DNA of 20,000 nt from an uncultured virus (IMG/VR IMGVR_UViG_3300032241_001451). Lineage: Duplodnaviria > Heunggongvirae > Uroviricota > Caudoviricetes. The DNA is taken from IMG/VR virus record IMGVR_UViG_3300032241_001451. The stretch is one strand, 5' to 3'. Shown here one piece after another: positions 470 to 6,347 of this stretch (its first letter is position 1; each line of letters begins with the position of its first letter). Below the pieces are notes generated by a model. That model worked only from the letters and a program-made list of their open reading frames with translations. It was not told the DNA's origin and made no database searches. Made by a program: the position numbers and the translations under genes.

Positions 470-622
470 TTAGTTGGGGAATAGCAGGTCTTTACAGAAT
501 TGTGACATCTGACTTACTGGGACTTTACAACTCTTAGGAGTTGTTATGTCATTTAACCAATAGCAGATAGCGATAACAACAACTGCGATTAGTAAGAAGA
601 TAACTATGCGTTTTAGTTTCAT
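470..622 (-). CDS. small membrane-anchored protein, 50 aa (MKLKRIVIFLLIAVVVIAICYWLNDITTPKSCKVPVSQMSQFCKDLLFPN)
   Basis: Manual translation; AAGGAG SD; basic N-terminus, one TM helix and a Cys pair. Confidence 0.75.
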   Translation of the reverse strand: MKLKRIVIFLLIAVVVIAICYWLNDITTPKSCKVPVSQMSQFCKDLLFPN

Positions 623-652
623 TTATTCTCCTTTTCGTTGTTAGTGTTAAAT

Positions 653-1240
653 TGAATACTTACAACAAGTATTCATAGCCGTTCACTTGTCATAACTGCT
701 CATAACAGGTAACAAGTGACCGACTAAAAATAATTGTTAAAGATAAGTAGTAATAAGCGCACACGATTTGATTTCGCATTTGACCATGTATTTGTCGCAC
801 TAGGCGTAGTCAATTAGCGGTGTGATTATTAGCAGAAGATTGTCTGCCCAAGTGTTAGCCAACGCATTTTGTTGCGCGGTGTAATTAACTGCTAAGTGTT
901 AAAGAAGTTTCATAACAAGTCACACATTGACTTTCATACTTCATAACAATTAGTGAAGTTAAATTACTGTTGCGAGAGTTTCACTCGCACCGATTAAGAA
1001 GTTTCACAACTTCAATAGTGGCGTTGTAATAAATACAACCTGCTCTATCGGATTTCCACGAACCGATTTCTCGGTGGCGGGCTAACAAGAGAATTGTATG
1101 TGACATCAGGGCAAGAACGCAACTCACCCGAAATTGAGCGTGTTTCACGCGTGAATTGGGGGTGGGAATTGGCAGATTGCCAGCCCTTGATACTTTCCCG
1201 TTCTCCACCCCCCATGAGTCCTACATACTGTGATTACAGT
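653..1240 (-). ncRNA. candidate large structured RNA or structured leader of the leftward operon
   Basis: More than 12 stems. GNRA loops (GAAA at 1067-1070, GUGA at 1004-1007) and G-U pairs (676-681/721-726, 1121-1126/1215-1220) work only on the minus strand. Long-range stems at 853-860/1080-1087 and 1096-1101/1223-1228. Confidence 0.6.
1138..1151. repeat. 14-bp site GCGTGTTTCACGCG, copy 1
   Basis: Identical to 1728-1741; internally palindromic (GCGTG-TTT-CACGC). Confidence 0.8.
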
Positions 1241-5795: not shown

Positions 5796-6347
5796 ATGAC
5801 GACCATCGTTGGAGTTCAGTACAAGAACAAATCGGTAATTGTTGCCGATAATCAAGTAACTGATGACACGGGTCGTCGTTTTAACCATCCTGACATGAAG
5901 AAGATTGCAGAACGTGGTCCTATTCTTGTTGCAGGAAGTGGCGAGGTTCAACCATGCGACGTCATTCAACACATGTGGAATCCACCAGCGTTGACTGTTA
6001 AAGATAAAAAAGACATTTATCACTATGTAATTACTAAGGCGATGCCATCCTTTCGCAAGTGCCTTGTGGATAACGGCTATGACTTTGCAGAAGGTAAGGG
6101 CGATGGAAAGGCTGATGAACAGCGCTTCCATTTCATTATTTCTATTAATGGCGAATTATTCGACATAGCAGATGACTTATCTGTCTGTCGTTCAGAAGAC
6201 GGTTTCTATGGTGTAGGTTCAGGTGCGTCATATGCTTTGGGCGCTCTTCATGCAGGAGCCACCCCAGTTGAAGCAGTTGATATCGCTGCTAAACTAACCG
6301 TGTATACATCAGGACCATATCAAGTTGTGGAGCAATTAAAAAGATGA
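5796..6347 (+). CDS. Ntn-hydrolase, HslV/proteasome beta-subunit-like peptidase
   Basis: N-terminal (M)TTIVG nucleophile, AD.QVT, KI, AGSG and GSGASYALGAL motifs; AAGGAG SD. Confidence 0.85.
   Translation: MTTIVGVQYKNKSVIVADNQVTDDTGRRFNHPDMKKIAERGPILVAGSGEVQPCDVIQHMWNPPALTVKDKKDIYHYVITKAMPSFRKCLVDNGYDFAEGKGDGKADEQRFHFIISINGELFDIADDLSVCRSEDGFYGVGSGASYALGALHAGATPVEAVDIAAKLTVYTSGPYQVVEQLKR

Follow-up and report, generated by a model that had tools for sequence, protein, structure and literature searches.

A conserved folded leader, likely of the first early operon, in probable actinobacterial phages and its predicted processing by RNase III

We analyzed a stretch of 20,000 nucleotides (hereafter, the window) that covers the final 20 kb of a virus contig of 76,618 bp (G000; completeness estimate of 79%). 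Comparison with related phages indicates that the minus strand from position 1086 to position 623 is a folded element that has been kept in these phages through matched base changes, and that it likely corresponds to the 5′ leader (464 nt) of the phage's first early operon. This element is real, conserved and uncatalogued. We further propose, with moderate confidence, that this leader is cut by RNase III between positions 676 and 675, that the mRNA then refolds a blunt hairpin at its new 5′ end and that an RNA of ~360 nt is released. A stable non-coding RNA derived from the released piece would be a possible extra outcome of this model.

Related loci were gathered with protein scans (15 loci) and with DNA-motif scans on a conserved end block (17, 27 and 87 loci); many of these proved redundant, were too short or matched coding DNA by chance. 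The 110 motif-bearing loci were reduced to 85 long and then to 55 distinct loci, and the true syntenic ones were selected among them by eye. The resulting set comprised 30 leaders: 17 from clade A, which are similar to the leader of the window (356–545 nt), and 13 from clade B, which are longer (mostly 580–760 nt) and more conserved in sequence. The start of L114 is uncertain and L113 was used solely in alignments A4 and A5. Clade-A leaders are poorly conserved in sequence (47% column identity). Despite this divergence, the same plan is kept across the 30 leaders: a closing helix from the +1 onward, then a small hairpin containing a 1x2 loop, extended AU helices and finally a helix at the 3′ side. 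All permutation controls reported here ignore the relatedness of the leaders. The clade-B leaders (e.g., L030:3512-4112 and L026:3516-4280) present many conserved motifs and long-range covarying helices, and an elaborate RNA is more plausible for them than for the leader of the window itself.

A preliminary description of this DNA had proposed multi-domain RNA structure between positions 653 and 1090, and this was borne out on both strands: the minus strand folds at −130.5 kcal/mol (z = −6.86) and the plus strand at z = −4.25, with 0/100 shuffles as stable in either case. It had also seen no credible ORF; the ORFs of 50–75 codons overlapping the upper end of the region lack counterparts in diverged relatives. 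All 11 stems that it listed are present as complementary sequence, but two of them are predicted not to form in the intact minus-strand leader (623–1086). High pairing probabilities were obtained for 917–933, 971–989, 1062–1075, 832–847 and 676–726 (p = 0.7–1.0) and somewhat lower ones for the hairpins 998–1013 and 1023–1039 (p = 0.6–0.7). The hairpin 938–959 (p = 0.00) is instead absorbed by a long helix (967–881), and the perfect 9-bp stem 653–675 (p = 0.02) is out-competed in the predicted fold by pairing of positions 728–738 with 664–674. The 8-bp closing stem described at 853–860/1080–1087 is supported for the pairs 1086–1081:854–859, but the outermost of its pairs (1087:853) falls upstream of the predicted transcription start by one base. 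We found no pseudoknot inside the leader. Rfam returned no match in the window at gathering score and six chance-level matches at E ≤ 10 (best E = 0.72), none of them to a large RNA, so that membership of the ROOL or GOLLD families was not upheld. Rfam detected only tRNAs in 14 related loci and two chance matches in L030, and a blastn search against 50,697 phage records gave no match.

A terminal helix (664–738, minus strand) ends the leaders of both clades. This helix consists of an upper stem (726–676) capped by an AUG triloop, a U.U mismatch (727/675) and a 10-bp lower stem (738–728:664–674), and it has the most Watson-Crick pairs of the helices found in the 76.6-kb contig. The extension by the lower stem has a probability of ~0.9 in the leader 623–1086. 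We anchored 26 leaders on the conserved U of the 3′ strand (window 675) after dropping the near-duplicates L048, L004, L052 and L121; L087 was anchored 10 nt off in this set. The mismatch position is U.U in 19/26 leaders and A-U in the other seven (7/26). Across the 10 positions of the lower stem, 236 of 260 cells are paired, against 184 (maximum 208) in permutations that ignore relatedness, and pairing drops to 7/26 at the 11th position. The corresponding figure for the upper 14 positions (362/364) is circular, since these positions set the anchor. In a 12-row alignment that excludes the window, double-sided changes affect 17 of 29 pairs, a value reached by none of 500 shuffles, and slid registers gave 1–4. 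Using strand-neutral scoring of the terminal helix in the 17 clade-A leaders, we counted 77 G.U against 15 A.C on the transcribed strand, which points to RNA. This strand bias, the covariation and the conserved promoter described below support the other suggestion of the preliminary description, namely an early leader with a high degree of structure, on the minus strand.

A model of the terminal helix built from this 12-row alignment (R1), and hence without the window, matched the minus strand at 646–741 (E = 9.8e-6) and had no other strong match in the contig. Among 88 sources, all 42 matches of this model are leader helices of syntenic loci, including six of clade B, and none was found in LuckySocke or in unrelated loci; five relatives each present one site per genome. 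No further copies of the helix were detected at E < 0.2 in G000–G005 beyond the leader's own two strands. The apical loops are conserved as well (AUG triloop in 11/17 clade-A leaders and CAGCGA in 11/13 clade-B leaders). We found no pairing between leader and terminator in an ungapped scan of the contig. In six clade-A operons, there was no exact complement of at least 10 nt within ~40 nt of the terminator stem, except for one 10-mer in L017, and the best leader–terminator duplexes ranked from 12/355 to 225/311.

The multi-branch 5′ domain (854–1086, minus strand) starts at the predicted +1 and is closed by the helix P1 (1086–1081:854–859). With the 5′ part folded alone, positions +1 to +6 are paired in P1 with p = 0.94–0.99; the probability of P1 is 0.75 in the fold of 623–1230 and 0.41 in the full leader 623–1086. 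Long-range pairing of positions +2 to +6 reaches a probability of at least 0.75 in 12/16 leaders, and P1 is weak in four (L017, L025, L075 and L121). The arms of P1 differ in sequence between phages, and we compared cognate and swapped arms with permutations that ignore relatedness. Cognate arms pair on average more stably than swapped arms (respectively, −12.3 and −9.5 kcal/mol; 0/20,000; n = 17), and the difference was also observed without L027, L048, L121, L134 and L136 (respectively, −12.1 and −9.3 kcal/mol; 1/20,000; n = 12). This difference is largest at offset 0 and absent at +3 and +12; a weaker signal is seen at +30 (232/20,000). The part preceding the terminal helix folds with z ≤ −3 in 14/16 leaders (20 shuffles each), the exceptions being L017 (z = −2.1) and L075 (z = −0.7). 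Its sense strand folds better than its antisense strand in 13/16 leaders, and the window is among the three exceptions (−3.4 vs −3.9).

Within this domain, P2 (1056–1080) is a short hairpin with a 1x2 internal loop and a GAAA loop that includes the stem 1062–1075; the same geometry directly follows P1 in 12/17 clade-A leaders despite their differing sequences. P3 (990–1051; 1051–1047:994–990) comes with the hairpins 1039–1023 and 1013–998 (p = 0.6–0.7), and relatives carry long AU-rich helices of unrelated sequence at its place. It is followed by a hairpin at 971–989 (p = 0.99) and by P4 (881–967), a long interrupted AU-rich helix with the cap hairpin 933–917, as obtained from the MEA structure and pair probabilities; its sole change in L015 turns a G-C pair into G.U at position 898. 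In the predicted folds, P5 (862–877) is a small hairpin preceding the 3′ arm of P1. Just after P1 lies a hairpin at 831–848 (p = 0.99), with a near-identical counterpart after P1 in L087. All these elements are on the minus strand. The 5′ domains do not align with plain MAFFT, and the evidence for their conservation therefore rests on per-sequence folds and swap tests. Clade B possesses its own 5′-proximal closing helix of 4 bp, each pair of which is kept in 6–8 of 8 rows, and double changes occur at 36 of 67 consensus pairs in this clade.

Transcription of the leader is predicted to start from a sigma-A-type promoter on the minus strand (1093–1122), with the −35 sequence TTGCGT (1122–1117), an 18-nt spacer and the −10 sequence TACAAT (1098–1093), and this pattern places the +1 at G1086. 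We predict that this promoter is transcribed by the host RNA polymerase. It is found at the matching place in all clade-A relatives: across 14 clade-A leaders, each position of the TTG of the −35 is kept in 13/14, and the A and T of the −10 are invariant (14/14), counts which are partly circular for the −10 given that, beyond the first loci, in which a regular expression located the promoter, anchors were chosen by eye. A purine is found at the seventh base past the −10 in 14/14 leaders and in 17/17 of the larger clade-A set. The expression is expected to match 0.19 times per shuffled 700 nt; a strict sigma-70 scan did not list the 1122–1093 site.

The predicted +1 implies a leader of ~464 nt rather than the RNA of ~580 nt proposed previously, which had incorporated a "pseudoknot domain" at 1090–1230. 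With the +1 at G1086, that element overlaps and precedes the promoter. We discarded the longer RNA since it contains the predicted promoter and since relatives show no better folding than shuffles in the upstream DNA: the 110 nt ahead of the −35 present a z-score of −0.8 in the window and below −2 in 1/14 leaders (mononucleotide shuffles). This upstream DNA contains a CACGC-bearing repeat (D6; 1138–1158) with a second copy at 1728–1748 (90% identical), and 1–3 CACGC, GCGTG or GCGTA words are found upstream of each of the 14 promoters. The repeat is likely a protein-binding site and not part of the RNA.

The genomic setting is consistent with an early operon. The leader lies in a non-coding gap (623–1926) that separates divergent gene blocks. 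The first gene of the leftward block (470–622, minus strand) encodes 50 aa with a hydrophobic N-terminus and without Pfam match, and similar short genes are found in relatives. The block contains small genes, an AAA ATPase and a VWA protein (annotation taken from locus L015, which is 98–99% identical) and is closed by a strong terminator ~9.4 kb from the predicted +1. The early block is devoid of TGCA (a gap of 11.3 kb reaching window position 1946), GGCC (to 1856) and CCWGG (to 1858), the pattern that would be expected of early DNA that is injected first. More broadly, GATC, CCGG and AGCT are missing throughout all 76.6 kb of the contig, and TGCA, GGCC, ATAT, ACGT and CCWGG are missing from an early zone of 9–13 kb. 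The contig encodes a WhiB protein (Pfam E = 1.7e-18), which makes an actinobacterium the likely host, and its terminase is 52–53% identical to those of the Streptomyces phages BRock, LuckySocke, Alone3, GiJojo and pSt2308. We infer a freshwater setting from the type of phage and its low G+C. The sole match among genome contigs that could have served as a host lead (L149; 72% G+C) was rejected as a chance match, and a tRNA/tmRNA search found none in the window or the contig.

A conserved DNA block at 1590–1906, kept in clades A and B, likely represents the genome end (or terminal repeat) or a packaging signal. We placed the genome end there because the equivalent location in LuckySocke holds the end of its genome together with a short terminal repeat, and this repeat and the conserved block have a GGCTACTG word in common; the zone free of TGCA, GGCC and CCWGG also ends here (1856–1946). 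The block contains two GGCTACTG words and a short direct repeat. Its minus strand folds with z = −5.7 at 1601–1750, and the end region of LuckySocke with a z of merely −1.9. Between the block and the promoter, the minus strand presents a G/C hairpin (1437–1451) followed by a C run (1424–1432), both kept in clade-A relatives.

Several other features of these genomes were observed. L015 carries an additional gene of 121 aa (L015:2142-2507) that separates its leader from the 50-aa gene. The junction lies within the repeated ribosome-binding segment (window 623–652), and the first gene differs among relatives, which suggests gene exchange by recombination at ribosome-binding repeats. The plus strand of the contig has 22 copies of the octamer CTTCTTTA, of which 20 in the early zone (G000 46200–58500, up to window ~1900), with ~5.6 expected genome-wide. 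The word TAAAGAAG occurs 21 times in the contig, five of them in the early zone, and three copies are at window positions 900, 1244 and 1304. The octamer may represent a protein-binding word or, in part, Lys-Glu codons. A tyrosine integrase-family gene (G000 46928–48238) and a lysozyme-like (SLT_3) gene (46245–46931) are located 3′ of the early-operon terminator in the same orientation, and ORFs of like size are found at this place in five relatives. Finally, positions 5796–6347 of the window encode a protein of 183 aa with a weak match to proteasome subunits (Ntn; E = 3e-4), below the Pfam cut-off.

The predicted start of the processed mRNA holds a second, latent structure. A hairpin at 653–675 (minus strand) shares a strand with the lower stem of the terminal helix, such that the two are mutually exclusive: its probability is 0.02 in the intact RNA and 0.8–1.0 in an RNA starting at position 675, of which it would be the 5′-terminal stem-loop. 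The two local states are near-equal in energy in the window (−31.6 vs −32.0 kcal/mol) and close in most leaders. A latent hairpin of 6–11 bp that begins at the anchor U or at the base following it is present in 20 of the 23 leaders examined, including all 20 with a long linker, and its arms are matched within each phage (128 Watson-Crick pairs in cognate arms vs 74 in swapped arms, maximum 104). It is lacking in L030, L089 and L096, and also in L032; in these four leaders the start codon lies 26 nt from the anchor. The hairpin is followed by an A/C-rich linker (623–652) containing the ribosome-binding site AAGGAG (633–628), and related GAAA(A/C)GGA words precede other early genes. The accessibility of this ribosome-binding site is predicted to be unchanged between the intact and cut forms, and no effect on translation is therefore predicted in the window. 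We rejected an intrinsic terminator or attenuator at 653–738, since an A/C tract rather than a U-tract follows the short hairpin and the terminator scan listed nothing there.

In the model that we favor, the extended helix (738–664) would form first during transcription, and the host RNase III would cut beside the U.U mismatch, on the 3′ strand (676/675) and possibly also on the 5′ strand (725/724). From its new 5′ terminus, U675, the mRNA would refold into the hairpin 675–653 and displace the upstream piece. This would leave no unpaired 5′ base for 5′-end-dependent decay. Pairing at the 5′ end is an obstacle to RNase E and to RNase J. For B. subtilis RppH, PMC3997798 reports a requirement for at least two unpaired 5′ bases. 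The sealed end at U675 would therefore stabilize the early mRNA of ~9.4 kb. With its 5′ end held in P1, the upstream piece of ~362 nt would build up as a stable RNA, which may protect or promote early transcription or have a further role. Both RNAs would be sealed at their 5′ ends: the primary one by P1 at the +1 and the processed one by the latent hairpin. In the four leaders without latent hairpin, cleavage would instead make the ribosome-binding region accessible.

The dimensions of the helix fit a cut at this position, and the box rules of E. coli RNase III are matched only in part. According to PMC1540722, on E. coli, substrates of RNase III typically span two helical turns, 11 bp are needed from the cut and G-C or C-G is not tolerated at pb2. 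The 26 leaders present an upper stem of at least 14 bp, the mismatch and the 10-bp lower stem, and a cut that yields U675 as the 5′ terminus would keep exactly 11 positions beneath it. In this register, which we derived from the numbering of PMC1540722, the lower half-site has G-C or C-G at pb2 in 0/26 leaders, U.U or A-U at pb4 in 26/26 and G-C at pb1 in 12/26, and the neighboring registers (+1 and +3) place a C-G (20/26) at pb4 or pb2. Against the E. coli rules, the upper half-site presents G-C or C-G at its pb2 in 20/26 leaders, and the U-A/U-G orientation of the distal box is unmatched in the lower half. We found no consensus for actinobacterial RNase III in the open-access literature. The conserved apical loops are not explained by processing by RNase III.

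A more ambitious reading, which we advance only tentatively, is that lake actinophages possess, in these leaders, a hitherto undescribed family of early RNAs. In this view, a self-resetting switch operated by RNase III would free a 5′-sealed RNA of ~360 nt, reaching up to ~700 nt in the sister clade, with its own role in host takeover or counter-defense, together with a conserved-loop hairpin of ~50 nt, and the hidden hairpin would seal the new 5′ end of the mRNA.

Alternatively, the leader might be an uncut cis-acting switch or antiterminator in which the extended helix and the pair of long and short hairpins control read-through into the early genes, their states being set by a loop-binding protein or by RNA polymerase, as for put. 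The near-equal energies of both states in most leaders, the conserved apical loops, the conserved geometry of P2 just past the +1 and the long operon downstream would all fit such a switch, as would the ~90% of L5 Pleft transcripts that end before gene 89 according to PMC5712189. We nevertheless consider it unlikely: the short hairpin is followed by an A/C tract without U-tract and the terminator scan is empty at 653–738; the ribosome-binding site lies outside both states in 20 leaders, so neither state obviously controls translation; and 4/30 leaders keep the helix without the second state.

It is also conceivable that a large, free-standing non-coding RNA (from 1086 to ~653–676) is the principal product, with a job of its own, such as host takeover or acting as a decoy for dsRNA-binding defense or RNases, the 3′ helices merely making its 3′ end. 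A 5′ end paired from the +1, as in stable RNAs, the conserved multi-branch plan and a sister clade with many conserved motifs and a 5′-proximal closing helix are in line with this possibility; moreover, PMC5712189 describes the L5 counterpart as the most abundant phage RNA and as toxic. Yet the 47% column identity in clade A, lengths ranging from 356 to 545 nt, the lack of Rfam match, the absence of a terminator between leader and genes and a conservation that is strongest in the module facing the first gene render it quite improbable as the main explanation. It would be compatible with the RNase III model as an added role. Lastly, it is very unlikely that the inverted repeats act as DNA (cruciforms or ejection/packaging signals near the genome end) or reflect incidental AU-rich folding, because, although the region is ~0.5–0.8 kb from the likely genome end and its plus strand folds well too (z = −4.25), G.U exceeds A.C by 77 to 15 on one strand, P1 starts at the predicted transcription start, the helices covary and the structure stops at the promoter.

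PMC4858673 and PMC4838370 describe, respectively, five RNase III sites in the early RNA of T7 and the B. subtilis phage SP82 as an RNase III target. As with T7 (R0.3, R1.1) and SP82, the transcript studied here would be an early one made by the host polymerase from the first-entering end, which we infer in our case, and a long irregular helix of about two turns lies just ahead of the first gene. Unlike these systems, the leader is a multi-branch fold of ~360–550 nt with a paired +1, and its cleavage is a prediction. T7 presents five sites, and we found one such site per genome. According to PMC1540722, a single cut of the T7 type leaves the upstream piece with a 3′ hairpin that protects it; here, the latent hairpin would protect the downstream 5′ end.

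The early leftward region of cluster A mycobacteriophages (L5, D29 and StarStuff) offers another comparison. There, as reported in PMC5712189, a very abundant, processed and toxic RNA of ~500 nt lies between Pleft and the first early gene, and in L5 it is processed into species of 100–400 nt sharing their 5′ end. In both cases ~500 nt of non-coding sequence, which folds well (z = −5.23 for the L5 Pleft region), separates the early leftward promoter at the genome's right end, a position presumed for our phages, from the first gene. However, R1 scores 6.9 bits against L5 (E = 4) with no homology seen, and the centroid fold of L5 has neither a long-range stem from the +1 nor a 25-bp terminal helix. 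L5 transcripts are also thought to terminate in this region. Since the L5 region folds well without a match to R1, we regard it as an analogue.

ROOL and GOLLD are large multi-branch phage RNAs. In size range, phage origin and multi-branch fold, the leader resembles descriptions of these families, but it has no Rfam match, low sequence conservation and a fixed position as an operon leader. The put RNA of phage HK022 is an antiterminator that binds RNA polymerase and suppresses downstream termination. Like put, the leader is a structured RNA downstream of an early promoter with two abutting hairpins in one of its states; unlike put, the abutting pair is ~360 nt from the +1, is disfavored in the intact RNA, and the leader has no Rfam match. 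We did not find a description of this leader element, nor of a latent hairpin protecting a downstream product, in the open-access literature. The terminal hairpin may be among the 8,495 short IMG/VR candidates (29–151 nt) of Fremin 2023, as described in PMC10690425; three motif spellings and three contig names gave no match in six of the supplementary files of that study.

These results provide a base-level prediction of how the first message of abundant freshwater actinophages would be processed, with a +1 at position 1086, a cut at 676/675 and a refolded 5′ hairpin. Through comparison, the leader family also gives access to the Pleft-type RNAs of actinophages, which are abundant, toxic and so far unexplained, and the leader module could become a portable mRNA-stabilizing part for actinobacteria.
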